Part shown: positions 16,351 through 33,969 of the stretch, piece after piece
How positions within the stretch are numbered: the first letter of the stretch is position 1
Layout of the letters: each line of letters opens with the position of its first letter
Source: an uncultured Thermodesulfobacteriota bacterium
GTDB lineage: Bacteria; Desulfobacterota; BSN033; WVXP01
Reading direction: 5' to 3'
Assembly (NCBI GenBank): GCA_964347335.1
Contig: CAYFYO010000002.1
Coordinates: forward strand, 4,911-68,910
DNA: 64,000 nucleotides
Notes under the pieces: generated by a model
Told to the model about the DNA's origin: nothing
The model's database searches: none
Seen by the model: the letters and a program-made list of their open reading frames with translations, nothing else
Program-made: the position numbers and the translations under genes

Positions 16351-17331
16351 ATGTTTGACGTTGTCGCATTGGGGGAGGCGATGCTTCGCCTCGTACCTCC
16401 GAATTATCAGCGGTTGGAGCAGACGGACAGCTTCAATGTGACCATCGGTGGTGCAGAACTAAGTGTGGCCACCAATGTGAGCCGTCTTGGCCTTCGTTCT
16501 GCCTGGGTTTCGAAACTGCCCACCAATCCCATGGGGCGCATGATCGCCAACAAGGCCAGGGAACAGGGGGTGGACACCTCCCACATCGTCTGGACAAAAG
16601 AAGGAAGGGCGGGTCTTTATTTTGTAGAATTCGGGAGCACTCCCAGAGCGACGTCGGTCATTTATGATCGGGGGGGGTCTGCAGCCAGCATGCTTGGTCC
16701 CGGCGAAATCAACTGGAACGAAATCCTCAAAGGAACGAGGATCTTTCACACCTCTGGGATAACGCCTGCCCTGAGCCCGGGTTGTCGTGAGGCGACAGTA
16801 GAGGCCATCGAAAAGGCCAGAGCAGCCGGCTGCAAGACGAGTTTCGATCTCAACTACCGGGCAAAGCTCTGGTCTGCGGCCGATGCCAAGGCATGTTTTG
16901 AGAGGATTCTCGACAAGGTCGACATCGTCATTACGACCCAGTTTGATGCCGAAGAGGTGCTCGGATACACAGGGGATTATGAGGACATTGCGAAGCAGTT
17001 TTCAGACAATTTTGGCATTCCCATTGTGGCCATTACCCTGAGAGGGGTAAAGACCGTACTGACCGGCACCTGGACGAGTCTGGTCTATGCGGAGGGAGAG
17101 ATCTACCGGGATGATGTGGCTGAAATTGATATTGTCGATCGGTTTGGCGCGGGAGACTCATTCACGGCGGGTTTTATTTATGGCTATTTGCAGGAGGGAG
17201 TCGAGCAGGGTTTGAAGATCGGCGATGCCATGGCAGCCATCAAGCACTCGATTCCGGGTGACATTAACTGGATTACTATGGAAGACATTCAGAAGTTTCT
17301 CAAGAGCAAGGATTTTCGGGTCCAAAGGTGA
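16351..17331 (+). CDS. kdgK: PfkB-family sugar kinase, likely 2-dehydro-3-deoxygluconokinase
   Basis: Ribokinase-fold motifs GGAELSVA and DRFGAGDSFTAGF. Adjacent to eda. Confidence 0.75.
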   Translation: MFDVVALGEAMLRLVPPNYQRLEQTDSFNVTIGGAELSVATNVSRLGLRSAWVSKLPTNPMGRMIANKAREQGVDTSHIVWTKEGRAGLYFVEFGSTPRATSVIYDRGGSAASMLGPGEINWNEILKGTRIFHTSGITPALSPGCREATVEAIEKARAAGCKTSFDLNYRAKLWSAADAKACFERILDKVDIVITTQFDAEEVLGYTGDYEDIAKQFSDNFGIPIVAITLRGVKTVLTGTWTSLVYAEGEIYRDDVAEIDIVDRFGAGDSFTAGFIYGYLQEGVEQGLKIGDAMAAIKHSIPGDINWITMEDIQKFLKSKDFRVQR

Positions 17332-17341
17332 GGAGGAACCC

Positions 17342-18001
17342 ATGGAAAAAGATAAGCAACGGCAGATAATCCGGCAAACAGGCATTGTTGCAATCATCCG
17401 GGCCAAAACATCGGGCGATCTCGTCGAGGCGGCAGAGGCAATCAAAGCGGGGGGGCTTGGGGTCATCGAGGTGACCATGACGACTCCCGGTGCTCTGAAT
17501 GTCATTTCTGAGGCGACCCAACGGTTTGGCACTGAGGTTCTCTTTGGCGCGGGCACCGTGCTAGATCCTGAGACGGCCCGCGCCGCCATTCTTGCTGGTG
17601 CACAGTTTATCGTCTCACCAACGCTCAACCCAAAGACCGTGGCGCTTTGTCGGCGGTATTCCAAAGTGGTTATTCCAGGATGTTTCACACCGACAGAGAT
17701 TCTCAAAGCCTGGGAGTTGGGGGCCGATTTCGTGAAGGTCTTTCCAGCCGATGTAGGAGGTCCATCCTATATCAAGGCAATTCTCGCTCCACTGCCTCAG
17801 GTTGAGCTCATTCCGACCGGCGGCGTAACGGTCGAGACGACTGGGCCATTTCTCAAGGCAGGAGCCGCCGCTGTCGCGGCAGGAAGCAGCCTGGTGAGCC
17901 AGAAGATCCTCGATGAGAAGGACTTCGCCCAACTTACGGAAAGAGCCACGAAGTTCCGGGAGGAAGTCGCAAAGGCCCGGCAAGGGCAAATGATGCTGTG
18001 A
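17342..18001 (+). CDS. eda: KDPG / 4-hydroxy-2-oxoglutarate aldolase
   Basis: Eda-family sequence (GIVAIIRA...GVIEVTMTTPGA...KVFPA). GAGGAGG lies 6 nt upstream of the ATG at 17342. Confidence 0.85.
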   Translation: MEKDKQRQIIRQTGIVAIIRAKTSGDLVEAAEAIKAGGLGVIEVTMTTPGALNVISEATQRFGTEVLFGAGTVLDPETARAAILAGAQFIVSPTLNPKTVALCRRYSKVVIPGCFTPTEILKAWELGADFVKVFPADVGGPSYIKAILAPLPQVELIPTGGVTVETTGPFLKAGAAAVAAGSSLVSQKILDEKDFAQLTERATKFREEVAKARQGQMML

Positions 18002-18241
18002 AAGTCTGCTTCCCAGACGGCATTTGCAACGGACGACACCGATTTCATTATCCCTCTATTCCAACCAGAGACACTCTCGCCTGACATACGCGTTTCGAAA
18101 CTGCGGGAGATCCCATGGCCGAACCTGGAAGCTGAGTCGCTTGGGAGTGAGTTTACTTAAAGGAAATCTCAAGATCCGTTCTCGTCTCTTATCTCTGCTT
18201 AGGGTGTTCTCCATGAAACTCCCACCGCCCACCGTGCTATA

Positions 18242-19861
18242 ATGGCAAAGATGGAGAGATTTGCCCAAGTTTGCGAGGCGATTTCTGCAACGACGAAGAG
18301 ACTCAAGAAGGAATCCGTTCTGGTTGAGTACCTCAGGTCTCTTGGCGATGATGACCTACGGGTCGCCGCCGTCTTTCTCTGTGGCCAACCCTTTCCCTCG
18401 ACACATCAGGAAACGCTTCATCTTGGCTGGGCATCGGTCCGGCGGGTCTTGATCGATCAGTTCGGTATTTCACCCAATCAGATGGCTTCAGCCTACCTGC
18501 AGACCGGGGACACGGGGGCCATGGCCGAAGCCCTCCTTTCACGTACGGGGACCCGCAAAGGACTGACGTTGCGGGATGTCGCCGATTTCTTCTCCTCCCT
18601 CCCGGGCACTCGGAGCGCCAAGCACCGGCAGGATGCCCTCTACAAAATTCTCCGTGAAGCCTCGCCCCTCGAAGCGAAATACGTCCTCAAGATCATCACC
18701 GGAGACATGCGGATCGGCCTCAAAGAGAGCCTGGTGGAAAGCACCCTGGCAAAGGCCTTTGGTCGCGATCTCAAGCAGGTTCAGTGGGCCAACATGCTAA
18801 GCGGTGATATTGGAGAGACGGCCTTACGGTCGAGATACAACACCCTTGACCAGGCCAAAATGAACCTTTTCCATCCAATCAAGTTCATGTTAGCCACCCC
18901 GGAGGATTCCCCACAGAGGATTATCGAGGCCATGGGCAAGTGCTGTTTGGTGGAAGACAAGTACGATGGCATTCGATCACAGATCCATAAAGAGGGAGAG
19001 CGTATTCGGGTTTATTCCCGAACCATGGACGATGTGACCGCTTCTTTCCCGGACGTCGTTCGGGGTCTGCATACCCTCAGAGCTGACTTTATCTTGGACG
19101 GTGAAATCATCGTTCTGAAAGCGGGTCGCATTCAACCCTTCTCTTCTCTTCAGAGGCGGCTCGGAAGAAAACAGCCCTCAGAAGCCATTCTTCAAGAGGC
19201 TCCAGCACACTTTGTCGGCTTTGATGTTCTCTACCATCAGGGAGACATACTCCTCGAGAGGCCGCTCAGTCAGCGAAGGGCACTCCTTGAAAGACTCCAG
19301 AAGTCCCAAGCCTTCTCTCTCGGCCAGATGACCGAAGCCGAAGCCCCCCGCGACATTGACCAGGCCTTTGATGAGGCTCGCGGTCGAAACAACGAGGGAC
19401 TCGTTGCCAAGGCGCCCGATTCTCCGTATTCGCCGGGAAAGCGGGGGAGGGCTTGGCTCAAGATGAAGAAGCCCCTCGCCACCCTTGATGTCGTGGTCAC
19501 CGCTGCCGAGTATGGCCATGGAAAACGAAAAGGACTTCTCTCAGACTACACCTTCTCGGTTCGAAGGGGGAAGGAACTCGTGGCCATTGGGAAGGCTTAT
19601 TCCGGTATCACGGATCACGAAATCGAGACACTCACCACCCGATTCAAGGATTTAACGATCAAGCGATATGGCCCAGTCCACATCGTCCGACCAGAGGTTG
19701 TCCTCGAGGTGGCCTTCGATACCGTCAACAGAAGTCAACGTCACAAAAGCGGCTTTGCCCTCCGGTTTCCCCGCATCAAGCGAATTCGGAATGACAAGAC
19801 AGTCCAGGAGATTGACGATATCGAAAAGGTGAAGGGTATCTTTGAGAGGAGCCACTCCTGA
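18242..19861 (+). CDS. ATP-dependent DNA ligase (Lig1-like, with N-terminal DNA-binding domain)
   Basis: Adenylation motif I KYDGIR, plus OB-fold and N-terminal DBD blocks. 539 aa. No Ku or LigD polymerase/phosphoesterase domains nearby. Confidence 0.85.
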   Translation: MAKMERFAQVCEAISATTKRLKKESVLVEYLRSLGDDDLRVAAVFLCGQPFPSTHQETLHLGWASVRRVLIDQFGISPNQMASAYLQTGDTGAMAEALLSRTGTRKGLTLRDVADFFSSLPGTRSAKHRQDALYKILREASPLEAKYVLKIITGDMRIGLKESLVESTLAKAFGRDLKQVQWANMLSGDIGETALRSRYNTLDQAKMNLFHPIKFMLATPEDSPQRIIEAMGKCCLVEDKYDGIRSQIHKEGERIRVYSRTMDDVTASFPDVVRGLHTLRADFILDGEIIVLKAGRIQPFSSLQRRLGRKQPSEAILQEAPAHFVGFDVLYHQGDILLERPLSQRRALLERLQKSQAFSLGQMTEAEAPRDIDQAFDEARGRNNEGLVAKAPDSPYSPGKRGRAWLKMKKPLATLDVVVTAAEYGHGKRKGLLSDYTFSVRRGKELVAIGKAYSGITDHEIETLTTRFKDLTIKRYGPVHIVRPEVVLEVAFDTVNRSQRHKSGFALRFPRIKRIRNDKTVQEIDDIEKVKGIFERSHS

Positions 19862-23747: not shown

Positions 23748-23913
23748 GCCGTCCAGAATTCACAAAACCTAGGCGTCACGTACTGTATCGTACGGCTGTT
23801 TTGCATTGCAAGCCTCAATGGTCACGAGCGACGAGAATTGCCTCTCCTTGATCCACTCGGTCCATTTTGTTAAGCTGGCGGTGGAACATCAAACGCTGTG
23901 GAGGATCAGCAAT

Positions 23914-25359
23914 ATGACATCAGACCCAGTCGATCTGGAGTCGAACACCCACAGGAGTGACATACCGGTCTTCACGACACCCACGGATTTGATGAAAAGC
24001 ATCTCAGGCCTTACGCTGAAAAATAAAGCCATCGAAATCCTTGATGAAAGAGATGCTCGCCGTTCCATGGACATCCTGGCTTTCAACGCCGTTGATTTTG
24101 GTGAAGGGAAGAGCGCCTCTCCTCAGGTCATTGCGCTGGCCCGATACCTGATCTCGGAAAGCGCCCGTCAGTTGGGTGCCGTTCCGGCTTCTATCTTTCC
24201 ATTTTATGCCGCCATGGCAAGCGGAGAAATCGGTCGGAATCTCACGGTGGCTGCCATCAACATCCGAGGGGATGCCTACAATACGGCTCGCGCTTTGTTT
24301 CGGGCCGTCCAGGCGAACGGGGTCGGAGCCGTCATTCTCGAACTGGCTCGCACCGAAATGACCTATACAGCTCAGCCACCAGCCGAATATGGAGCCGTCA
24401 TGACCGCTGCCGCTGTCCGGGAAGGCTTCAAGGGGCGTCTCTTTCTGCAAGGTGACCATTTTAAGGTGGACGCAAAGCGGTACCGGGACAATCCTGAACA
24501 AGAGCTCGAGACTCTGCAAGCCCTCATCCGAGAGAGTATCCGGGCTGGTTTTGGGCAGATCGACATCGATGCCTCGACACTGGAGCGGAGAGGGGAATCA
24601 GGAATCTCGGTCGAGGAGGCGGTCCGAGAGAATGCCGAGCTTACCGCTTCTTTGACTGGGTTTATCCGTCAGACCGAGCGTGAGTTGCAAATCCCCTACG
24701 CCCTCTCGATCGGAGGCGAATCGGGAGAGGTTGGAAAGACCAATACCACCGTCGAGGAGTACCGGGCATTCATGGGAATACTCACAGAGAGGCTCACCCG
24801 GTCGGGCATTGACCGTGGAATCAGCAAGATCTCGGTAAACACCGGAACAGCCCACGGAGGCGTTCGTCTTCCGGATGGAACCCTTGCAAAGGTCAATATC
24901 GATTTCGATACCCTCAAGGCGATCAGTCGAGCGGCCCGCAGAGATGGGTTGGCAGGTGCCGTCCAACATGGTGCCTCGACGCTTCCGGACGAGATTTTCC
25001 ATCGGTTTGTCGAGTATGAAACCGCCGAGGTTCACCTGGCCACAGGTTTTCAGGATATCACCATGGACAACATGCCCAAGGATCTGCTCAATGTTCTCTA
25101 TGACTGGGTGAGGGTGAACTGTGCTGGGGAGAGAAAACCGAACCAGACCGAGATTCAGTTTCTCTTGGCGAATCGAAAACAATGCTGGGGACCGAACAAG
25201 GAGATCGTATGGAGAATGGACGAAGAGGCGAGGACGAGAGCGACCGAGGCACTGGAGACCAAATTTGCCTTCCTATTTCAGCAGCTAAACCTGGTCGACA
25301 CCGAGGATCTTATCGAAAGGTGGGTTCCTGAACCCAATGTGGTCTTCCAACATCCATAG
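23914..25359 (+). CDS. class II (metal-dependent) ketose-bisphosphate aldolase family protein, long form
   Basis: Class II aldolase blocks (AINIRG, QGDHF, IDIDAS, NTGTAHGG). About 480 aa, which is longer than canonical FbaA. ATG at 23914. Confidence 0.6.
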   Translation: MTSDPVDLESNTHRSDIPVFTTPTDLMKSISGLTLKNKAIEILDERDARRSMDILAFNAVDFGEGKSASPQVIALARYLISESARQLGAVPASIFPFYAAMASGEIGRNLTVAAINIRGDAYNTARALFRAVQANGVGAVILELARTEMTYTAQPPAEYGAVMTAAAVREGFKGRLFLQGDHFKVDAKRYRDNPEQELETLQALIRESIRAGFGQIDIDASTLERRGESGISVEEAVRENAELTASLTGFIRQTERELQIPYALSIGGESGEVGKTNTTVEEYRAFMGILTERLTRSGIDRGISKISVNTGTAHGGVRLPDGTLAKVNIDFDTLKAISRAARRDGLAGAVQHGASTLPDEIFHRFVEYETAEVHLATGFQDITMDNMPKDLLNVLYDWVRVNCAGERKPNQTEIQFLLANRKQCWGPNKEIVWRMDEEARTRATEALETKFAFLFQQLNLVDTEDLIERWVPEPNVVFQHP

Positions 25360-25372
25360 ATCCTGATCGTGT

Positions 25373-28300
25373 TCAAAAGAGATCCAACTGTTTACGGCTC
25401 TTTTCTGGTGGCGGTTTTCGAAGACTGACGGAGCCTTCCCTGAGATGGTCTTCAATATCCTTAAGAAATGGGGAGGCCTCTTGCACTCGCACTCGGCCAA
25501 AGACGGTTCGTCGGCGGGCGCGGGTGAGAAATATTTTCGCCTTACCTCTCGTCAGACCGACGTACAAGAGCCGACGTTCCTCCTCCACTGGAGAAGGAGG
25601 CCGTCCCTCGGGCCTGTAGGGTAGCAAATCAGCCTCACATCCCGCAACAAACACGATGGGAAATTCGAGTCCCTTGGATGCATGAAGGGTCATGAGCGTG
25701 ACCTTTTCGGCGCGAGGGTCAAAAGTGTCGAGATCCAATCTCAGAGCCATATGGGCCAGAAACTCGGCAACATCACCTGTGCTCGCTCCAGCCTCGCAAA
25801 CGAGGGTTTTGAGGGCATCCTCGGTCGGATCAAAACCCAGCTCCCTGGCGATCCTCCGTATCATCTCAGCAAGTGAAGCGTCGCTTTCCCCCCCTTCCAA
25901 CCCAGGGGCTAATCGAGCGTGATCCTTTTCGAACTCGGGCACCTTCCCCGCCTCGAGGTCGCTTCGAAGCACTTCAAGCACCCCTTTGACGCCCTCGTTA
26001 TTTGCCAGGGCCTCTCCACCGATTCGACGGAAGGGAATGCCTGACCTTTGAAATGCCTCTTCGATCAACTCTCCCTGGAAATGGAGACGGTAGAATACGG
26101 CAAAATCAGAGAAACTTCTGGTTTCCGGGCTCTCCACGCCATCGACCCTGCCGCTGTCCAAGGAGAAATGGCTCGTCCCCCCCATGAGCTGCTCAATGGT
26201 CTGTACGATCGACTCGGCTTCGGCTCTGTCAGTCGGATACTCGGCCATTGAGAGGAAATCGTCTCCTCCTATTCCAGACCAGATAAGGTTTTCAAGGCGT
26301 GAACTGCCCAGGCTCATGAGTCTTGCCGACGCCCTGACAATGGTCTCTGAGCTGCGGTAGTTCTGTTTGAGGCGGATGACCTCTGCACCGGGATAGTCAT
26401 TCTCAAATTGGAGGAAATACCGGTTATCTGCCCCTCGAAAACCGTAGATCGCCTGATCTGGATCCCCGATCACGCAGAGATTTTCGCCATGAGGCGAGAG
26501 CAATTGGATCAATCGGTATTGGGCGTAGTTGATGTCCTGGTATTCATCGACAGAAACGAAACGGAAACGCTCCCGATAATCGTTCAAGACCTCCCGATGG
26601 CCTTCAAACAGCCTGACAGGTAAGACAAGGAGGTCGTCCAGATCGACACATCGCGCCCTCTCGAGGGCCTTCTCGTAGGCGCGATAAACCATGGCTAAAC
26701 CAGGATCTGAGGTCTCAATCACCTCAGGGCCTTGGAGGTTCTGCTTCAGCCTGGAGATCCTATCTAAAATGGCGACCCTTTCTCTACCGGAGACCGAGGG
26801 ATCCAAGCCGTTCAAAACCGCTCTGAGGAGACCTTCGGCCCGAATGTTGTCAACGATGAACGAACTTCCGGACCTTCCACTCAGTTGCTTTTGCTCTCTG
26901 AGGATTTGATAACCTAAAGCGTGAAAGGTTTGGACCGTGACCTGTGCCTCCTCTCCAAGAAGGGCGATTAACCGCTCTTGCATCTCCTGGGCTGCCCTAT
27001 TCGTGAAGGTGAGGGCCAGAACCTGTTTGGGCTTTGCAATTCCATGGCGAATCAGAAATCCAATACGACGGGTGAGCGTCAAGGTCTTGCCTGTTCCTGG
27101 ACCCGCTACGATCAGCAAAGGCCTCTCCCCGTGACGAATAGCCCTCATTTGATCCGGATTTAGCCCTCGAAAAAGTGGATCGGCTTCATCGCTTGAGGCG
27201 ACATTCGCCGGCTGAAAACCTCTTGAGAGGCTGGAATCGCTTCGCCGAATCTTACGCGCCTCTTCGGTTTTTCGAGGGAATCGGGGCCTTTCCGATGGCC
27301 TTTTTTTCAAACTCATTGAATCGACTTCAAAAGCGATGAGACTTCCCTGACCGGATAGGGTGCGTCTTTCCTCTTGTGTAAACAATGTAATGGACCCAAA
27401 CTCTCCATCATAGCCTGCAGCGATGTGGACCTCACCCTTCCGCATGCGGCGCAGTCCCTCGACAAGCATGCCATGGCCTTTTCTGTCCAACTCCTCAAGA
27501 GGGAGGTCCATGAGAATAGCGAACTCCGGTCCACACTGTTCCAAAAGTCGCCGGTATTGAGCTTGGACCCATTTTGTCTGAGAACCGACTCCACGAATTT
27601 GGGAAAGGATTTCAGATAGCGTCAAAAGACTGCGAAAAGATGCGGCCCCTTCCGGATGCAAGCCATCTTCACGGTCCGCGAGTTCCTCAACCCGGTGCAT
27701 GACGCCGATGGTCACGGGCCGACCGCATTTCGGACAGAGATTGTTGTTTTCGAGTGTCTCCCGCGGACTCATACGCATGTTGCATTTCCTGTGGCCGTCG
27801 TAATGGTATTTTCCCTCCTCGGGGAAGAACTCAACGGTTCCGAAAAACCGATGTGGATCTCTCGATTTGAGCGCATCAAACATGGAGAAATACGAGAGAT
27901 CTGTGTCAAAGATGTTCGCCTCTCTCCCGAGGTTGGAGGGGGAGTGGGCATCGGAATTTGATATCAGCGCTAGACCATCGAGGGCCGAGAAACGCCAGTT
28001 CATGGGAGGGTCTGAAGAAAGACCTGTTTCCACAGCGAAAATGCGCGGAGAGAGATCTCCGAAGCACTCTTCCAGAGAGTCAAACCCAGATTTCGAACCG
28101 AAGAGAGAAAACCAGGGTGTCCAGATATGGGCCGGGATGAGATGAGCGTCCTCGCTCGCATCGAGTACGGTCTCCAGCAAGTCACGAGCATCAAGGCCAA
28201 GAATGGGGCGACCATCCGACCGGATATTCCCAATACGTTCCAGATCCCGTGTCAATCTCTCTGCCGCTTCGAAATCAGGGACGAAGACGACATTGTGATT

Positions 28301-28615
28301 TTTCCGGGTCTTGCCGTTCTTTTTGTAAATACAACTGATCTCGGTCGCAAGGACAAAGCGGACCGGAGCCCGGCATGATGCCGGCACCTGTGACTCAGTT
28401 ACGCCCACAAATTCGGATTTAAGTCTAAAAAGGCCCGGCTCGGCATGCTCGAGCTTTTCTCTCAGTTCAGAGAACCACTGGGGATGCGTAAAGTCACCCG
28501 TTCCCAAGACCCGAATGCCTTTTAGCTGAGCCCAGAGATTGAGATGCTCGAGGTCAAGGTCCCTTGCCGTGGCTCTCGAAAGGTGGGAATGAATGTGGAG
28601 ATCGACGATAAACAT
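25373..28615 (-). CDS. fusion protein: N-terminal EndoQ-like PHP-domain nuclease with Zn-ribbon + C-terminal UvrD/PcrA-type superfamily-1 helicase
   Basis: N-terminus DLHIHSHLS...LGTGDFTHPQW...NSDAHSP..LGREANIF...CPKCG resembles archaeal endonuclease Q (COG1379). The C-terminal 650 aa carry Walker A AGPGTGKT and the SF1 motif VDEYQD. 1080 aa. Confidence 0.8.
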   Translation of the reverse strand: MFIVDLHIHSHLSRATARDLDLEHLNLWAQLKGIRVLGTGDFTHPQWFSELREKLEHAEPGLFRLKSEFVGVTESQVPASCRAPVRFVLATEISCIYKKNGKTRKNHNVVFVPDFEAAERLTRDLERIGNIRSDGRPILGLDARDLLETVLDASEDAHLIPAHIWTPWFSLFGSKSGFDSLEECFGDLSPRIFAVETGLSSDPPMNWRFSALDGLALISNSDAHSPSNLGREANIFDTDLSYFSMFDALKSRDPHRFFGTVEFFPEEGKYHYDGHRKCNMRMSPRETLENNNLCPKCGRPVTIGVMHRVEELADREDGLHPEGAASFRSLLTLSEILSQIRGVGSQTKWVQAQYRRLLEQCGPEFAILMDLPLEELDRKGHGMLVEGLRRMRKGEVHIAAGYDGEFGSITLFTQEERRTLSGQGSLIAFEVDSMSLKKRPSERPRFPRKTEEARKIRRSDSSLSRGFQPANVASSDEADPLFRGLNPDQMRAIRHGERPLLIVAGPGTGKTLTLTRRIGFLIRHGIAKPKQVLALTFTNRAAQEMQERLIALLGEEAQVTVQTFHALGYQILREQKQLSGRSGSSFIVDNIRAEGLLRAVLNGLDPSVSGRERVAILDRISRLKQNLQGPEVIETSDPGLAMVYRAYEKALERARCVDLDDLLVLPVRLFEGHREVLNDYRERFRFVSVDEYQDINYAQYRLIQLLSPHGENLCVIGDPDQAIYGFRGADNRYFLQFENDYPGAEVIRLKQNYRSSETIVRASARLMSLGSSRLENLIWSGIGGDDFLSMAEYPTDRAEAESIVQTIEQLMGGTSHFSLDSGRVDGVESPETRSFSDFAVFYRLHFQGELIEEAFQRSGIPFRRIGGEALANNEGVKGVLEVLRSDLEAGKVPEFEKDHARLAPGLEGGESDASLAEMIRRIARELGFDPTEDALKTLVCEAGASTGDVAEFLAHMALRLDLDTFDPRAEKVTLMTLHASKGLEFPIVFVAGCEADLLPYRPEGRPPSPVEEERRLLYVGLTRGKAKIFLTRARRRTVFGRVRVQEASPFLKDIEDHLREGSVSLRKPPPEKSRKQLDLF

Positions 28616-28745
28616 AGTCGGAGGTGGCCACGATTTCAGTTGACTGGAATCTATCAGACGGCCGAGAATTTGTCAATATATTGTTTCTCGGAAAGATCAA
28701 AGCACAATATATTGTTATACATAAACAAACCCCTCGGAGTGACTC

Positions 28746-29039
28746 CTAGGGGTAGACAAAGACAAATACGCTGTATTTTTCTTGGTTCACCAGGAAGGAT
28801 TCAAATCTCCTATTGATCTCATGCCTCTCTGGGTGGTTCCGCCATGCCTCCCAATCCTCCACGCTCTGCCAGTTACTGATGACGATATACTTTGAGGCAT
28901 CGTCCCTAGAACGCAGCGTTTCCCCTGAAATATAACCCTTTTGAAACAGGGCCGAGGTTCGAAGCTCCCTCATCAGGTTCATCAGCTGGGCTTGCTGACC
29001 CTCTTTGACCTTCCTTTCAATGATCACCTTAACTGCCAT
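28746..29039 (-). CDS. antibiotic-biosynthesis-monooxygenase (ABM/Dabb) domain protein
   Basis: 97 aa starting MAVKVIIERKVKEG. GGGAGG lies 6 nt upstream. Stop is TAG. Confidence 0.55.
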   Translation of the reverse strand: MAVKVIIERKVKEGQQAQLMNLMRELRTSALFQKGYISGETLRSRDDASKYIVISNWQSVEDWEAWRNHPERHEINRRFESFLVNQEKYSVFVFVYP

Positions 29040-29308
29040 GAAAGCCTCCCTGCTCAGGTGTCTAAACCGTTTTCTTGCGCAACGGTCGACCCCCTTCCGA
29101 TCCATGCCGGGGTCTTCGCCAGGACTGTTTTTCCCGGACTAAGCCGTCCTTTGGCAAGCGCGTGAATCCCATGGATCTTTCACCCGTATTATTCTAGCCC
29201 CATCGATGCAAAAATCAACAAAAATCTCGTCGTTCCAGAAAGCCCTTGACATCGCTTTGAGTTCTGCGGTAATTGACGGAAACAAAATGGGAAAAGGAGG
29301 TGCATTCA

Positions 29309-30180: not shown

Positions 30181-30782
30181 GGCCCTCTTCGCCTTTTCAC
30201 CTCTTGAGTGATTTCGAGAAACTCCACTTTCTTTTCAACGAGAAGCACAAAGAGATGATAGAGGACATCGACGCTTTCTTCGATGAGCCGCTTTTTGGAT
30301 TCGCGCTTCGCCGCATGGATCACCTCTCCCGATTCCTCACCCACTTTTTCACAGATTCTGTTCAGGCCTCTCGCAAAAAGGGAGGCCGTGTAGGAGCCCT
30401 CAGGCATCTTTTCCTTACGCTCAGCAATGACAGCATACAGCTCATTGAACATGTCATGTCCCTTGGTGGTGCGAAAGCACGATGTCGAACCTGTATGACA
30501 TGTGGGGCCCTGTGGTGAGACTTGAACCAGGAGGGCGTCCCCGTCGCAGTCAGCCTGCACTTTGACCAAATCCAAAGTGTTTCCACTCGTTTCACCCTTC
30601 ATCCAAAGCCGTCCCCTTGACCGACTGTGAAACCAAACCCGGTTTGTCTGGAGTGTCCTTTCCAGCGCTTCCTGATTCATATAGCCGAGCATCAAGACCA
30701 CGCCTGTTTCCGCGTCCTGAACAATGGCAGGGATCAGTCCATTTTCCCTTTTCCAGTTGAGTTCGAGTCTCGTCTGTTTCAT
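30177..30782 (-). CDS. hisIE: bifunctional phosphoribosyl-AMP cyclohydrolase / phosphoribosyl-ATP pyrophosphatase
   Basis: HisI block ([19 protein letters not shown]) followed by a HisE-like C-terminus. The start overlaps the upstream stop as ATGA. Confidence 0.85.
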
Positions 30783-32911
30783 GACCGAATCGGTATGTTA
30801 TTCTCGCTGAGATAGGCCTTCAGTTCGGGAATTTCAAGCTCCCGGTAATGAAAGAGACTGGCCGCAAGTGCCGCATCGGCCTTTCCCTCGACAAAAGCTT
30901 CCAAGAAGTGGACCTTTGTTCCTGCTCCACTGGATGCGATAATTGGAATGCTCACGTTTTCGGAGAATGTCCGCAAGAGCTCAATGTCATAGCCATTCTT
31001 CATGCCGTCTTTATCGAGAGAGTTCACCAAGAGCTCTCCCGCGCCCAGACTTTCCATCTGTCTCGCAAAGGCAACCGCATCAACTCCAGTCGGCTCTTTG
31101 CCACTTTTGATATACAGCTCCCAGTGATCGCCCCTCCTTTTTGGATCAATGGAGATCACGATGCATTGGGAGCCGAACTGCTCGGCCGCAGCCTTCACAA
31201 AGCCGGGATCCTGCACCGCCGCCGAACCGATGGACACCTTATCAGCTCCGCATTTGAGGAGATTTCTGATCGTCTGGAGTGACCGAATTCCGCCACCTAC
31301 GGTGAACGGAATGTTGATGTTTTGAGAGATCCTTCTCACCAGATTATAGAAGGTGTCTCTATTTTCCACCGTCGCCATAATGTCGAGATACACAAGCTCG
31401 TCCGCTCCCATTTCACTGTAAAGCTTACCGAGTTCGACAGGATCACCGGCATCTCGAAGCTGAAGGTAGTTCGTACCCTTGACAACTCTCCCCTCTTTGA
31501 TATCCATACACGCGATGATCCGCCTTGCCAGGCTCGCCCGTCCTCCCGAGGTTTCTTCAAATTCGGTGCATACGGGAAGCTCTCGTTTCGCCCACGCCCT
31601 GAGATCGACTTTACCCTCATAGAGTGCTTTGCCGATGACAACGCCCCAAGCCCCCATACGATCGAGCTTTCTGACATCCTCGTCCGAGGAAATGCCCCCG
31701 GCGACAATGATGCGAAAGGGGGATTCGAGCACCTCCTCGATGAACGCAAAATCTGGACTCTTGAGCGTTCCGTCTCTCCGGATATCTGTCAGAATGACGA
31801 ACTCGACGCCGAGTCCTCGCAAATCACGGAGAAAATCGAATAAGGTTCTCTCGGCCGTTTCCTGCCAGCCTTTAATTGCGACCTCGCCATCCCGCACGTC
31901 AACCGCCACGACGATGCGACTTTTCCCGTATTTGCTGATCAACCGCTCGATGAGCCGGGGATTGGCCAAAGCCGAGGTTCCCAGAACAACCCTTCTCACC
32001 CCACCTTCGAGGTAGCTCTTCGCGTCTTCATAGGTTCTGATTCCACCCCCAACCTGTACGGAAATATTCAAAGATCGTGTGATTTTGAGAATCTGCTCCA
32101 TGTGCCCTGGCGTGCCCTCTCTCGCACCATTCAAATCGACGATGTGGATGATGGAGGCCCCATGGTTCTGGAAGTTGACAGCCTGCTCATGTGGATCCTC
32201 GGAGTAAATCGTGCGCTGGCTGTAATCGCCTTGAATGAGCCGGACACATTTACCGTCGAGAAGATCCAGCGCGGGAATCACCTCGATCTTTCCCGCTTTG
32301 CGAAGCGGCACTTTGCAGAAATTGTAGAGGAGCTTGAGACCAACCGGGCCCGATTTTTCCGGATGAAACTGAACGCCATAGAAATTGTCTTGCCTGAGGA
32401 TCGCTACGAATTCTTGCCCATAAGCTGATTTGCCCAGAGTCACACGTTCGTCAGCATCGACATAATAGGAGTTAACGAAGTAGAAATATGAGCCATCGGG
32501 AATTTCACTGAAAAGGGGATCCTCCTGGATTTGGTGCACGGCATTCCACCCGATCTGAGGAACCTTAATTCTGAGTTTTGGACCCTTATCCGTTACGAAT
32601 CGGTTGACCCTTCCGTCGACAATCCCGAGGCAGGTTGTATTGTCTTCTTCGGAAAAGGGCAGAAGAAGCTGCATGCCTAAGCAAATACCGAGAAACGGCA
32701 CCTTGACGTCCTTGATCACCCTATCGAGGTGCTTTTTCTTCAGTTCCCTCATCGCTGGAGCTGCCCTTCCCACACCCGGGAAAATCACTCGATCGGCCGC
32801 GCTGATAATGTCCCGGTCGGCCGTGACCGTATAGGTTACCCCCAGTGAGTCGAGGGCATTGGTTACCGAGGCGATATTTCCCGACCTGTAATCGATGACC
32901 GCAACTTTCAT
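30779..32911 (-). CDS. hisHAF: tri-functional fusion HisH (glutaminase) - HisA (ProFAR isomerase) - HisF (IGP synthase cyclase)
   Basis: HisH motifs GICLGMQ...FHPE. His[15 protein letters not shown]...GGGIR. His[16 protein letters not shown]...GGGIRS...IASSGAG. All three lie in one 710-aa polypeptide. ATGA overlaps occur with hisB upstream and hisIE downstream. Confidence 0.85.
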
Positions 32912-33969
32912 ATGACTCCCTTCGTTGATGGTAAGGAATCTTCCAGACGACGGTCCGGTTCGCACGCTATTCTCAAAGCCCGCCCAAAGGCCTTGAAGAT
33001 GGCCTCTATTTTATGATGCTCATTTCTGCTGTACCGAACGTTGACATGGATGTTCGCTCTAAGGGACTCAGATAGTGATCGGAAAAAATGTTCGACCATT
33101 TCTGTCGGGAGATCTCCGACTTTCTCGCGCTTGAATTCACAGCTGAAAACGAGATAAGGCCGGCCACCCAGATCCAAAGCGACTTCTGCCAATGTATCGT
33201 CCATTGGCAATAGAAAACCATATCGTGAGATCCCTTTTCTCGGGCCTAATGCTCTCGAGATCGATTGGCCCAGGGTCAGACCAACATCTTCGACCACGTG
33301 ATGTTCGTCCACGTTTGAAACGGCCTTGGCTCGGATTCTCAGGTCTATGAGCGAGTGTTTGGAGAGCTGCTCCAGCATGTGGTTGAAGAACTTCAGCCCA
33401 GTCTCGATCTGAAAGTCTCCTGTTCCATCGAGGTTGCATTGGATGAATACATCCGTTTCCTCGGTCTTTCTTTCTACATTGGCCAGCCTTGGAAAGGAAC
33501 CATTCGTTTGCATCCTGACTCCCCATACACCGAGATTTCTGGCAAACTCCATATCCGCTTCCCGATCACCGATCATGATCGATCGGTCGAGACCGACCTT
33601 TTGTTGTCGGAGAAAATCTTGAACGAGACCGGTACGAGGCTTCCGGCAGTCGCAGTCATCCTCGGCAAAGTGTGGACAAATGAGGATTCGATAGAATTCG
33701 ATTCCTTCCTTTCTGAGCAGCTCCAGGAGCCTCTTCTGAGGCCTTTGGAAGTCTGCTTCTGGAAAAGAGGAGGTCCCCCGACCGTCCTGATTCGAAATCA
33801 TCACCAACCAATACCCTTCCTCTTTGAGCCGCTTCAGGCCTCCCACAACACCCGGAAGCATCCTCACCTTTTCAACCAAGTCGATCTGTCTCGTATCGGG
33901 TGGCTCGAAGATCAGCGTCCCGTCCCGGTCAAGGAAAGCGATCTTCAGTTCTGACGATAAACCTGCCAT
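32908..33969 (-). CDS. hisB: bifunctional histidinol-phosphatase (HAD) / imidazoleglycerol-phosphate dehydratase
   Basis: N-terminal HAD motif FLDRDGT. C-terminal IGPD motifs (ETDV..., HHVVED, RYGF). 353 aa. Confidence 0.85.
   Translation of the reverse strand: MAGLSSELKIAFLDRDGTLIFEPPDTRQIDLVEKVRMLPGVVGGLKRLKEEGYWLVMISNQDGRGTSSFPEADFQRPQKRLLELLRKEGIEFYRILICPHFAEDDCDCRKPRTGLVQDFLRQQKVGLDRSIMIGDREADMEFARNLGVWGVRMQTNGSFPRLANVERKTEETDVFIQCNLDGTGDFQIETGLKFFNHMLEQLSKHSLIDLRIRAKAVSNVDEHHVVEDVGLTLGQSISRALGPRKGISRYGFLLPMDDTLAEVALDLGGRPYLVFSCEFKREKVGDLPTEMVEHFFRSLSESLRANIHVNVRYSRNEHHKIEAIFKAFGRALRIACEPDRRLEDSLPSTKGVI

Follow-up and report, generated by a model that had tools for sequence, protein, structure and literature searches.

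The window analysed here, a stretch of 64,000 nt, carries a gene which codes for an endonuclease Q (EndoQ)-type nuclease joined to a UvrD-type helicase in a single protein of 1080 residues. We consider it likely that the gene, which is chromosomal and forms a unit by itself, codes for a DNA-repair enzyme belonging to the long bacterial EndoQ type. The protein is a further case of a known fusion type, already contained in a supplement from 2016, and this fusion type is biochemically uncharacterised in the searchable literature. The gene, its direct neighbours, and the subregions of its product are as follows (nucleotide positions refer to the window; aa, residues of the protein; Pfu and PfuEndoQ, the enzyme from Pyrococcus furiosus).

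23806..25359, plus strand: class-II aldolase-like gene, convergent neighbour
25373..28615, minus strand: whole ORF with ATG start (1080 aa and stop codon), from an EndoQ-like nuclease through a linker and a UvrD-type helicase to a clamp-binding tail
27824..28615, minus strand: PHP catalytic domain, aa 1–264, from the residue-by-residue PfuEndoQ alignment
27623..27823, minus strand: Zn-binding domain, aa 265–331, putative ligands H275, C278, C294, C297
27350..27622, minus strand: EndoQ C-terminal helical domain, aa 332–422, aligned to Pfu 304–382 and to PF27218
27329..27349, minus strand: decayed internal clamp-motif-like QGSLIAF, aa 423–429, at the junction where stand-alone EndoQ proteins stop
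27182..27328, minus strand: interdomain linker, aa 430–478, disordered, basic, Ser-rich
25430..27181, minus strand: SF1A UvrD/PcrA/Rep-type helicase core, aa 479–1062
Helicase motifs (aa): Walker A AGPGTGKT 504–511; DEYQD 690–694; GDPDQ 717–721; QNYRS 751–755; motif V 976–985; VGLTR 1019–1023
25775..25963, minus strand: reduced 2B subdomain region, aa 885–947, ~63 aa compared to ~129 aa in PcrA
25376..25390, minus strand: predicted β-sliding-clamp-binding motif QLDLF, aa 1076–1080, at the very C-terminus
28648..28676, minus strand: best sigma-70-like promoter match (TTGACA, 17 nt spacer, TAGATT, upstream TG), with the ATG 33 nt on
28746..29105, minus strand: ABM gene, neighbour across a 130-nt gap

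The ORF listing of the window and the translation confirm that a single ORF spans 25373..28615 on the minus strand, as given in a preliminary description of this DNA. Its ATG start is backed by the homologues, all of which open with M-x-F-I-A-D-L-H-I-H-S. Annotation of the flanks also bears out the earlier view that the gene forms a unit of its own between the aldolase and ABM genes. The ten flanking ORFs were assigned by Pfam to DeoC, ADH, MATE, aldolase, ABM, thioesterase, and his genes, that is, to housekeeping functions in metabolism and transport. The GC content of the gene (0.53–0.55) is similar to that of the surrounding DNA. Promoter-like matches in total do not exceed the count in shuffled sequence, and the candidate promoter is thus only suggestive. 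The predicted structure of the 1080-aa protein has moderate confidence (pLDDT 71, pTM 0.50) and is uninformative on domain docking.

The N-terminal EndoQ-type nuclease module

The nuclease module comprises aa 1–422. Residues 5–411 match PfuEndoQ (5zb8/7k30) with an E-value of 1e-47, covering chain residues 6–382 of 400. When the predicted model was compared with known structures using Foldseek, the match to 5zb8 took in all three EndoQ domains (target-normalised TM-score 0.80–0.81, rmsd ~4 Å), while that to 7k30 had a TM-score of 0.78. NCBIfam TIGR00375 aligned end to end (profile positions 3–374 of 374, E 3.9e-46), with a score of 158.1 bits which is below the curated cut-off of 326.6. This cut-off is narrow, since a Bacillus-type protein annotated by PGAP as "endonuclease Q family protein" also falls short of it (264 bits); failure to reach it does not therefore exclude membership of the EndoQ family. 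A stand-alone member of the query's own clade scores 186 bits. In the precomputed Pfam annotation, PF27218 (MJ0043_C) is found on all homologues.

The motifs quoted in the preliminary description were all located (DLHIHSH, aa 5–11; LGTGDFTHPQW, 37–47; SNSDAHSP, 219–226; CPKCG, 294–298), and its assignment of the N-terminal part to an EndoQ-type PHP nuclease with a zinc ribbon proved right according to the PfuEndoQ match, the fold, and TIGR00375. A non-nuclease PHP family does not occur among the 50 fold matches listed, all of which are EndoQ chains, SF1 helicases, or helicase-nucleases, so that the EndoQ call is not refuted.

The metal ligands H7, H9, E92, H107, H163, D222, and H224 are identical to Pfu H8, H10, E76, H84, H139, D193, and H195. 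Likewise, the pocket residues T166, E196, G198, L199, S200, and N220 are identical to Pfu T142, E167, G169, L170, S171, and N191 (for the roles of these Pfu residues, see PMC5961232). H139, G169, and S171 of Pfu are said to keep T and A out of the pocket (PMC8307549). Among 81 bacterial sequences, no substitution occurs at the metal ligands or at T166, E196, G198, L199, and S200, while N220 is retained in 77 and W168 (Pfu W144) in 65. The pocket adjoins the active site, and the metal ligands H139 and D193 of Pfu (H163 and D222 in the query) are also counted among its residues. The Pfu pocket residue L168 is replaced by T197, at a position where the pocket is lined by main-chain atoms only (PMC5961232).

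By alignment, the putative zinc site is a His-Cys3 counterpart of the Cys4 site of Pfu (C249, C252, C268, C271). In 79/81 bacterial sequences, position 275 is His; Pfu and Brevibacillus have Cys there. Zinc can be bound by His. Relative to PfuEndoQ, the clade also has a specific insertion of ~17 aa (approximately aa 68–85) and two extra conserved cysteines, C81 and C184.

With the EndoQ proteins from P. furiosus and Thermococcus kodakarensis (5ZB8, 7K30-33), the query shares the PHP, putative Zn-binding, and helical domains, the metal-ligand and pocket residues, and a C-terminal clamp-binding peptide. Apart from the His-Cys3 site, the insertion, and the two cysteines, it differs from them by a sequence identity of only 33% to PfuEndoQ, by the addition of a helicase of ~600 aa, and by its predicted partner, which is β (QLDLF) in the query and PCNA (PIP box) in archaea. 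[quoted passage not shown] The Brevibacillus representative of this type lacks the C-terminal Q-x-x-L-F, and the gene resides in a sporulation and housekeeping neighbourhood. EndoQ activity has been demonstrated for the Bacillus-type clade, as reported in PMC5961232.

Helicase core, linker, and C-terminal tail

Residues 480–1062 match PcrA (E 3e-89) as well as UvrD and Rep (~1e-68; overall 1e-67 to 3e-89). Pfam assigns UvrD-helicase (E 4.6e-71) and UvrD_C (E 1.8e-34), and Foldseek matches the helicase half to UvrD from D. radiodurans (E 4e-41). The SF1 motif set is complete (I, Ia, II, III, IV, V, VI), and across 51 homologues each motif is conserved, with no variation at its core catalytic residues. 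Motif search, Pfam, and the PcrA match thus agree with the earlier identification of a complete SF1 helicase, for which AGPGTGKT (aa 504–511) and VDEYQD (689–694) had been cited. From its family membership, the helicase half would be expected to catalyse ATP-dependent 3′→5′ translocation and unwinding. Because its scores are below the equivalog cut-offs for PcrA (437.6 vs. 911.2 bits), Rep (356 vs. 951), and UvrD (290 vs. 1144), it is a UvrD-like paralogue and not a canonical enzyme.

The alignment blocks with PcrA are interrupted from residue 884 to 948 of the query, corresponding to PcrA 400 to 530. This 2B region is 64 aa long in the query's clade and 76–79 or 121 aa in other clades; it is partly of low confidence in the predicted model. 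With its shortened 2B, the helicase may be regulated in another way than UvrD. The reduction of 2B was not noted in the preliminary description. Of the 724 residues of PcrA, the alignment extends as far as 649; the query reaches its C-terminus 18 aa further on, without the C-terminal extension of PcrA and UvrD. Compared to UvrD, PcrA, and Rep (1PJR, 2IS1, 4C2T, 1UAA), with which it shares the motifs and the 1A, 1B, and 2A core at 27–32% identity over ~650 columns, the query has an additional N-terminal nuclease, a 2B of about half the size, and a clamp motif in place of the C-terminal extension. A UvrD-like SF1A motor and a nuclease also occur in one polypeptide in AddA, RecB, and AdnB. There, however, the nuclease is a C-terminal PD-(D/E)XK domain, and the enzymes act on double-strand ends in multi-subunit complexes, whereas the nuclease of the query is an N-terminal PHP/EndoQ domain, predicted to be a lesion-specific nickase, and its gene stands alone.

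At the junction between nuclease and linker, a Q-x-x-[LMIF]-[FLI] motif is found in 48/51 fused homologues (QKSLF or QLSLF in other clades), and Q-x-x-L-F is the C-terminal end of the stand-alone homologues. Residues 423–478 have pLDDT values <50 in the predicted model. The homologues have linkers of between 30 and 89 aa.

The C-terminal tail is disordered in the predicted model, and QLDLF is, judged by its sequence, a canonical β-clamp-binding motif. A Q-[LM]-x-[LM]-F motif occurs within the final 12 residues in 112/120 homologues, with a chance rate of ~0.001. The motif QL[D/S]LF has been tabulated for bacterial EndoQ homologues (PMC4858679 Suppl. Fig. S1), and for archaeal EndoQ it was shown by experiment that the PIP box binds PCNA (KD 55 nM) and that nicking is stimulated (PMC4858679). 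The QLDLF motif, too, had not been noted in the preliminary description.

Distribution of the fusion

At E≤1e-30, the EndoQ-like domain yields 1,096 clusters, and the species genomes which contain it number at least 598, spread over many phyla. In 65 of the best 80 species-level loci, a helicase is fused or encoded directly downstream on the same strand, a number which includes ~8 split-gene versions; EndoQ is stand-alone, without an adjacent helicase, in ~14 of the best 80. The nearest full-length relatives share 69–71% identity with the query. Across homologues, the nuclease half is more conserved (52–62% identity) than the helicase half (27–47%). The neighbour-joining tree is incongruent with the phyla, which suggests some horizontal transfer.

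Since the same fusion is so frequent across bacteria, the preliminary claim of its novelty has to be withdrawn. Moreover, the long form is not new to the literature: Shiraishi et al. (2016; Sci Rep 6:25532, PMC4858679 Suppl. Fig. S1) listed bacterial EndoQ homologues of 945–1244 aa with the clamp motif. These share the N-terminal EndoQ homology and the C-terminal QL[D/S]LF with the 1080-aa query, and the taxa overlap (Desulfobacterota, Myxococcota, Chloroflexi, Bacteroidota, Spirochaetes). The query differs in that it comes from an uncultured lineage; in its subclade, moreover, 2B is shorter than elsewhere (64 aa) and the internal clamp-like motif has decayed. In the accessible literature we found no mention of the helicase domain of the long-form homologues, and in the searchable literature no biochemical assay of any member of the fused clade. 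In 2017, Shiraishi et al. reportedly set two bacterial EndoQ families apart "by domain organization", and the long-form homologues of the 2016 list are probably one of these.

Proposed function and alternative explanations

Most likely, the protein would be tethered to the clamp and would repair uracil, hypoxanthine, and AP sites by nicking and unwinding, independently of a glycosylase. A coupling of nicking and unwinding had been proposed before; it is a reasonable assumption, and the conserved fusion or adjacency of the genes together with the clamp-binding tail strengthens it. QLDLF on the disordered tail would tether the protein to the β sliding clamp (DnaN), in parallel to archaeal EndoQ, where binding of PCNA through the C-terminal PIP box stimulates nicking. 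The EndoQ module would then flip uracil, hypoxanthine, xanthine, or an AP site into the conserved pocket, and the Zn-loaded PHP active site would cut the phosphodiester bond directly 5′ of the lesion, leaving a 3′-OH and a lesion-carrying 5′-phosphate. Substrate specificity and 5′ incision are, in this scheme, presumed by analogy with the homologues.

The covalently attached SF1A 3′→5′ motor could load at the enzyme's own nick, where the intact strand is the most plausible track, and peel off the lesion-bearing 5′ end, comparable to UvrD, which in mismatch repair starts at a 5′ nick. The displaced strand might be removed by the 5′ nuclease of Pol I or by a RecJ-type enzyme, before a clamp-bound polymerase and ligase fill and then seal the gap. 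Loading strand, unwinding direction, and the downstream steps are what we infer; a 3′→5′ motor on the nicked strand itself would translocate away from the lesion, and the productive geometry is thus an assumption. In the original EndoQ paper, a helicase was proposed to remove the incised strand (PMC4357722 Fig. 10 legend).

The order of events might also be reversed: before any incision, the helicase, powered by ATP and associated with the clamp, would scan the DNA or open its strands behind the fork and offer single-stranded or distorted DNA to the EndoQ pocket. We consider this rather unlikely. PfuEndoQ has been assayed on ssDNA and dsDNA, with activity on both described in a review, and the clamp motif puts the enzyme where clamps remain on newly replicated DNA. 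Rep without 2B is hyperactive, and by inference from this the shortened 2B could correspond to a constitutively active monomeric translocase, while the long flexible linker would allow the nuclease to sample DNA near the motor. However, archaeal and Bacillus EndoQ find their lesions without a motor (PMC4357722; PMC5961232), the stand-alone EndoQ loci indicate that the nuclease is self-sufficient in recognition, and scanning by the helicase half has no direct support. It is quite improbable that the PHP module has instead been repurposed for DNA-end or flap processing together with the helicase, in the style of AddA or RecB, which would not be lesion-specific and would not make it a base-damage enzyme. 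PHP domains elsewhere serve as exonucleases or phosphoesterases; the His-Cys3 site, the insertion, and the two extra conserved cysteines set the clade apart from the characterised EndoQs; and, among the fold matches listed for the helicase half, chains of AddA, AdnB, and RecB occur at greater distance. Yet the pocket and base-discriminating residues of PfuEndoQ are conserved clade-wide, which would be unexpected had base recognition been lost, all three EndoQ domains lie within the fold match, and it is the nuclease half which is the better conserved of the two.

An anti-phage role, which the preliminary description had offered as an alternative, would have the protein nick and unwind uracil-containing or otherwise base-modified phage DNA as a defence effector. 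Nuclease-helicase fusions are often part of defence systems, the helicase half matches the PADLOC profiles for GajB (E 5e-86), some horizontal transfer is suggested by the tree, and in some relatives a JetA gene or an HsdM fragment is located within 7 kb. Nevertheless, the GajB matches are generic matches to UvrD profiles, the neighbours are housekeeping genes which vary between phyla without a recurring defence partner, the gene has the GC content of its surroundings, and the strongly conserved clamp-binding tail suits a replication or repair factor. The EndoQ-like domain was found in none of 50,697 phage records and not in IMG/VR; the single match on a plasmid, a distantly related EndoQ of the Bacillus type, lies on a replicon of 733 kb which is non-mobilizable. 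Given the housekeeping context and the lack of copies on phages, viral contigs, and mobile plasmids, the defence alternative is not supported, and we regard it as very doubtful. Gabija (GajA/GajB) was considered separately and rejected: PADLOC matches only the GajB- and DRT-associated helicase profiles, with the UvrD half, and Pfam reveals no nuclease partner among the ten flanking ORFs.

While nicking followed by unwinding remains our preferred reading, scanning can be cast in a stronger form, which we view as unlikely: a 2B-derepressed UvrD-type motor might move with or from β clamps behind the fork and thereby feed the EndoQ pocket as a clamp-riding, ATP-driven lesion scanner. If this were true, many anaerobic and uncultured bacteria would have a replication-coupled, glycosylase-independent surveillance for uracil and hypoxanthine, a pathway without a characterised counterpart in model bacteria.

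Domain composition of the EndoQ-UvrD protein

The gene under study appears in the ORF listing of the window as a single ORF with an ATG start that codes for 1080 aa. The start codon is supported by the homologues, which uniformly open M-x-F-I-A-D-L-H-I-H-S. The GC content of the gene (0.53-0.55) is like that of its surroundings. A motif search confirmed the motifs quoted in the preliminary description, at the positions given below.

25373..28615 (-), EndoQ-UvrD gene, 1080 aa: EndoQ-like module (aa 1-422), linker (aa 423-478), UvrD-type helicase module (aa 479-1062)
aa 5-11, DLHIHSH
aa 219-226, SNSDAHSP
aa 294-298, CPKCG
aa 504-511, AGPGTGKT
aa 689-694, VDEYQD

The preliminary description had called an EndoQ-type nuclease and a UvrD-type helicase, and both calls are correct. 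Among PDB sequences, endonuclease Q from Pyrococcus furiosus (Pfu EndoQ, 5zb8 and 7k30-33; chain residues 6-382) aligns with aa 5-411 of the protein (E 1e-47), and the NCBIfam model TIGR00375 is aligned over its whole length (positions 3-374 of 374, E 3.9e-46). The local Pfam copy gave only a weak match to PHP_C, whereas each of the homologues has a precomputed match to PF27218 ('MJ0043_C'), a more recent Pfam model. The TIGR00375 score of 158 bits is under the curated cut-off of 326.6 bits. We rejected a reading of this as non-membership: a PGAP-annotated Bacillus-type 'endonuclease Q family protein' reaches 264 bits and thus also fails, so that the threshold does not discriminate. The AlphaFold model superimposes on the Pfu EndoQ structure 5zb8 with a target-normalised TM of 0.80-0.81 and an rmsd of about 4 A; it is of moderate confidence (AF2, pLDDT 71, pTM 0.50), and domain docking cannot be read from it reliably. 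Because all 50 listed fold matches are EndoQ chains, SF1 helicases or helicase-nucleases, no other PHP family occurs among them, in line with an EndoQ rather than a non-nuclease PHP protein.

The key EndoQ residues, as defined in the structure paper (PMC5961232), each have a counterpart in the protein.

Table. Functional residues of Pfu EndoQ and their counterparts in the EndoQ-UvrD protein
Metal ligands: Pfu H8, H10, E76, H84, H139, D193 (and H195); counterparts H7, H9, E92, H107, H163, D222 (and H224)
Pocket residues: Pfu T142, E167, G169, L170, S171, N191; counterparts T166, E196, G198, L199, S200, N220
Tryptophan: Pfu W144; counterpart W168

The metal ligands together with T166, E196, G198, L199 and S200 are invariant in all 81 species-level bacterial sequences compared, while N220 is retained in 77 and W168 in 65 of them. 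By sequence and fold, the N-terminal part of the protein truly belongs to the EndoQ-type nucleases, with putative activity. Thymine and adenine are reportedly kept out of the EndoQ pocket by H139, G169 and S171 (PMC8307549). Since these three residues have counterparts here, the natural prediction is the same substrate range, namely uracil, hypoxanthine, xanthine and AP sites.

The module shares 33% identity with Pfu EndoQ and 29% with one Bacillus-type EndoQ. It differs from the characterised enzymes by a clade-specific insertion of ~17 aa (roughly aa 68-85) and by its first zinc ligand, which is His (H275; His in 79 of 81 sequences) instead of Cys. The putative His-Cys3 zinc site is common to almost the whole clade. 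Two conserved cysteines are absent from Pfu EndoQ and might provide a further metal site or a disulfide.

28373..28375 (-), C81, inside the ~17-aa insertion, conserved in 66 of 81 sequences
28064..28066 (-), C184, conserved in 77 of 81 sequences across the bacterial EndoQ-like clade

The C-terminal module matches PcrA (E 3e-89), UvrD1 of M. tuberculosis (1e-86), UvrD of E. coli (~1e-68) and Rep (1.7e-67), as well as the Pfam UvrD-helicase model (E 4.6e-71); in Foldseek, UvrD of D. radiodurans is matched at E 4e-41. In each helicase motif, the core catalytic residues are the same in all 51 homologues compared. Equivalog cut-offs are all far above the scores obtained (PcrA, 437 bits vs a cut-off of 911). 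The region that matches the 2B subdomain has ~63 aa compared to ~129 aa in PcrA and is the shortest among the sampled homologues (64 aa in its subclade, 76-79 or 121 aa in other clades), and the PcrA alignment stops at residue 649 of 724, without a C-terminal extension past that point. Judged from these matches, the module is a complete UvrD/PcrA-like SF1A helicase and not a canonical member. The linker (aa 423-478) is predicted to be disordered; those of homologues have 30 to 89 aa. No second UvrD-like gene was found within the window.

Clamp-binding tail and distribution of the fusion

The protein ends in QLDLF (aa 1076-1080), a feature absent from the preliminary description, which by sequence is a canonical bacterial beta-clamp-binding pentapeptide. 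The pattern Q-[LM]-x-[LM]-F occurs inside the last 12 residues in 112 of 120 homologues, compared to a background of ~0.001 occurrences per equivalent stretch elsewhere in the same proteins. Disorder is predicted for the tail (aa 1060-1080). This predicted motif mirrors the C-terminal PIP box by which archaeal EndoQ binds PCNA (KD 55 nM), a ring that stimulates nicking (PMC4858679).

Where the EndoQ module meets the linker, 48 of 51 fused homologues have a second Q-x-x-L-F-like motif (QKSLF or QLSLF), which has decayed in the subclade of the protein studied here. Stand-alone bacterial homologues end exactly at this position, and many of them also finish in Q-x-x-L-F. The internal motif could be a relic of the C-terminus before fusion, or a second clamp contact.

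27329..27349 (-), aa 423-429, QGSLIAF, decayed internal motif

In a whole-protein search, the 120 matches listed show 46-72% identity and are nearly all full length (1,075-1,260 aa); their names in the sources are 'UvrD-helicase domain-containing protein' or 'TIGR00375 family'. Of the two halves, the nuclease shows the higher conservation (52-62% identity, compared to 27-47% for the helicase). The EndoQ module alone matched 1,096 clusters at E<=1e-30 and 2,603 at E<=1e-10 (50% identity clusters, 1.84 billion representatives), and proteins of the top 150 clusters mostly have 1,000-1,370 aa. At least 598 species encode a relative of this module, as determined on contigs from one genome per species. 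The best 80 loci come from Desulfobacterota, Myxococcota, Chloroflexi, Nitrospirota, Planctomycetota, Bacteroidota, Gemmatimonadota, Acidobacteriota, Elusimicrobia, Omnitrophota, CPR groups and Firmicutes; they include the complete genomes of Desulfonema magnum and Sorangium sp. and the cultured Neglectibacter timonensis. A UvrD-type helicase is fused or encoded immediately downstream on the same strand in 65 of these 80 loci. Complete ORFs also number 65, and 43 of these are fused. Of the loci, ~8 have the two parts as separate neighbouring genes and ~14 are truly stand-alone. The fused form is the dominant one in bacteria, and most genes of this bacterial clade have a helicase attached or adjacent, together with a beta-clamp-binding tail.

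The adjacent pairs (loci L020, L030, L034, L051, L055, L068, L075 and L076) are split versions of the fusion, with EndoQ-like and UvrD-like genes on the same strand and gaps of 11-283 nt. Their hosts are Nitrospirota, Elusimicrobia, CPR, Planctomycetales, Acidobacteriota and delta-proteobacterial genomes, and some could be frameshift artefacts of MAG assemblies. Stand-alone forms are scattered over several places in an NJ tree without support values, which was used solely to see that they do not form one clean clade; this suggests that fusion or fission occurred repeatedly.

A beta-clamp-binding consensus at the C-termini of bacterial EndoQ homologues has been reported (Shiraishi et al. 2016, PMC4858679). 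Supplementary Fig. S1 of that paper tabulates short (405-464 aa) and long (945-1244 aa) bacterial forms, the latter from Geobacter metallireducens, Desulfobacterium autotrophicum, Caldilinea aerophila, Sorangium cellulosum, Rhodothermus marinus, Zymomonas mobilis, Desulfovibrio vulgaris, Bilophila wadsworthia and others. Three EndoQ families, two of them bacterial, were distinguished 'based on the domain organization' (Miyazono et al. 2018, PMC5961232). We found in the accessible literature neither a mention of the helicase domain nor an assay of the fused protein. An article by Shiraishi from 2017 (BBB 81:931) is said to define three EndoQ families 'by domain organization'. The novelty implied by the preliminary description fails by its own measure, because the fusion is frequent, chromosomal, spread over many phyla and was tabulated in 2016. 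The protein is a further representative, from an uncultured lineage, of a long form already on record, and the locus adds little to that.

Genomic context

Pfam analysis of the ten flanking ORFs revealed genes for a DeoC aldolase, an alcohol dehydrogenase, a MATE transporter and a thioesterase, and a his operon. A convergent class-II aldolase-like gene lies 13 nt from the stop codon of the EndoQ-UvrD gene, and an ABM protein gene is located 130 nt upstream on the same strand. This neighbourhood is shared by the closest MAG relatives (loci L001 and L002). In Desulfovibrionales, Anaerolineae and KSB3, the relatives lie among unrelated genes without a recurrent partner; a partner conserved across phyla was sought and, apart from the synteny in close relatives, none was found. 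A good sigma-70-like match is located 33 nt upstream of the ATG, but promoter and terminator scans around the gene performed no better than on shuffled sequence, where such matches are as common.

Several features of this and related regions were recorded.

23806..25359 (+), aldolase-like neighbour, 517 aa, with a weak F_bP_aldolase match (E 1e-13) preceded by an N-terminal region of ~145 aa; its L001 orthologue has a weak GatZ_KbaZ-like match as well
30779..32965 (-), 728-aa ORF of the his operon with a HisH-type glutamine amidotransferase and two His_biosynth domains (HisA, HisF); the HisH-HisA-HisF triple fusion (710 aa) is also present in the syntenic loci L001 and L002
56001..64000, GC 0.46-0.48 vs 0.50-0.55 elsewhere in the window, GC skew strongly negative (-0.14 to -0.28); possibly a segment of distinct composition
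17188..19324 of locus L003 (Desulfovibrionales MAG), uvrC and uvrB, ~6 kb downstream of the fused gene and on the opposite strand; this was seen in no other locus examined and is probably a coincidence

Proposed repair model and rival explanations

To our knowledge, studies of repair initiated by EndoQ have been confined to archaea and Bacillus. By analogy to characterised homologues (PMC4357722, PMC5961232), the Zn-dependent PHP site would incise immediately 5' of uracil, hypoxanthine, xanthine or AP sites, and the SF1A motor would translocate in the 3'->5' direction. In the proposed sequence of events, the enzyme would nick while tethered to the clamp; the motor would then load onto the intact strand opposite the nick site and displace the lesion-bearing 5' strand. 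A 5' nuclease would remove the displaced strand, and a clamp-bound polymerase together with ligase would fill and seal the gap. The nick-and-unwind reading of the preliminary description is reasonable: the fusion or adjacency and the clamp motif fit it as sequence features, and unwinding itself is what we infer.

Nuclease and helicase modules in one protein might also be expected of an anti-phage effector, as the preliminary description had considered. This rival would be a restriction enzyme against dU-containing phage DNA. PADLOC reported matches on the protein, all of them GajB-type and to the UvrD half; these were rejected as defence evidence, being generic GajB/UvrD profiles. Pfam detected no nuclease partner gene among the ten flanking ORFs, and neither the phage collection nor the IMG/VR viral contigs contain relatives of the EndoQ-like domain. 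In the plasmid collection a single match was obtained, to a distant EndoQ of the Bacillus type; it is encoded on a non-mobilizable Brevibacillus replicon of 733 kb, where its neighbours are sporulation and housekeeping genes. With its housekeeping flanks, the context argues for housekeeping repair over defence, and the restriction enzyme fits less well. The same holds for the two other rivals, a motor-driven scanner that would act before incision and a repurposed non-specific nuclease. For unwinding after the nick, the original EndoQ model already has a branch, 'removal by helicase activity' (PMC4357722).

The EndoQ-UvrD fusion suggests that bacteria built this helicase-removal step into the EndoQ enzyme, and the evidence from fusion and adjacency suggests that the step which follows the EndoQ nick is helicase-driven strand displacement at the clamp. 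To the question of what follows EndoQ incision, the combination of fusion and clamp tether suggests an answer that can be tested. As this architecture is present in tractable hosts (Geobacter, Zymomonas, Desulfovibrio vulgaris, Sorangium, Rhodothermus), the hypothesis is within reach of standard biochemistry and genetics.
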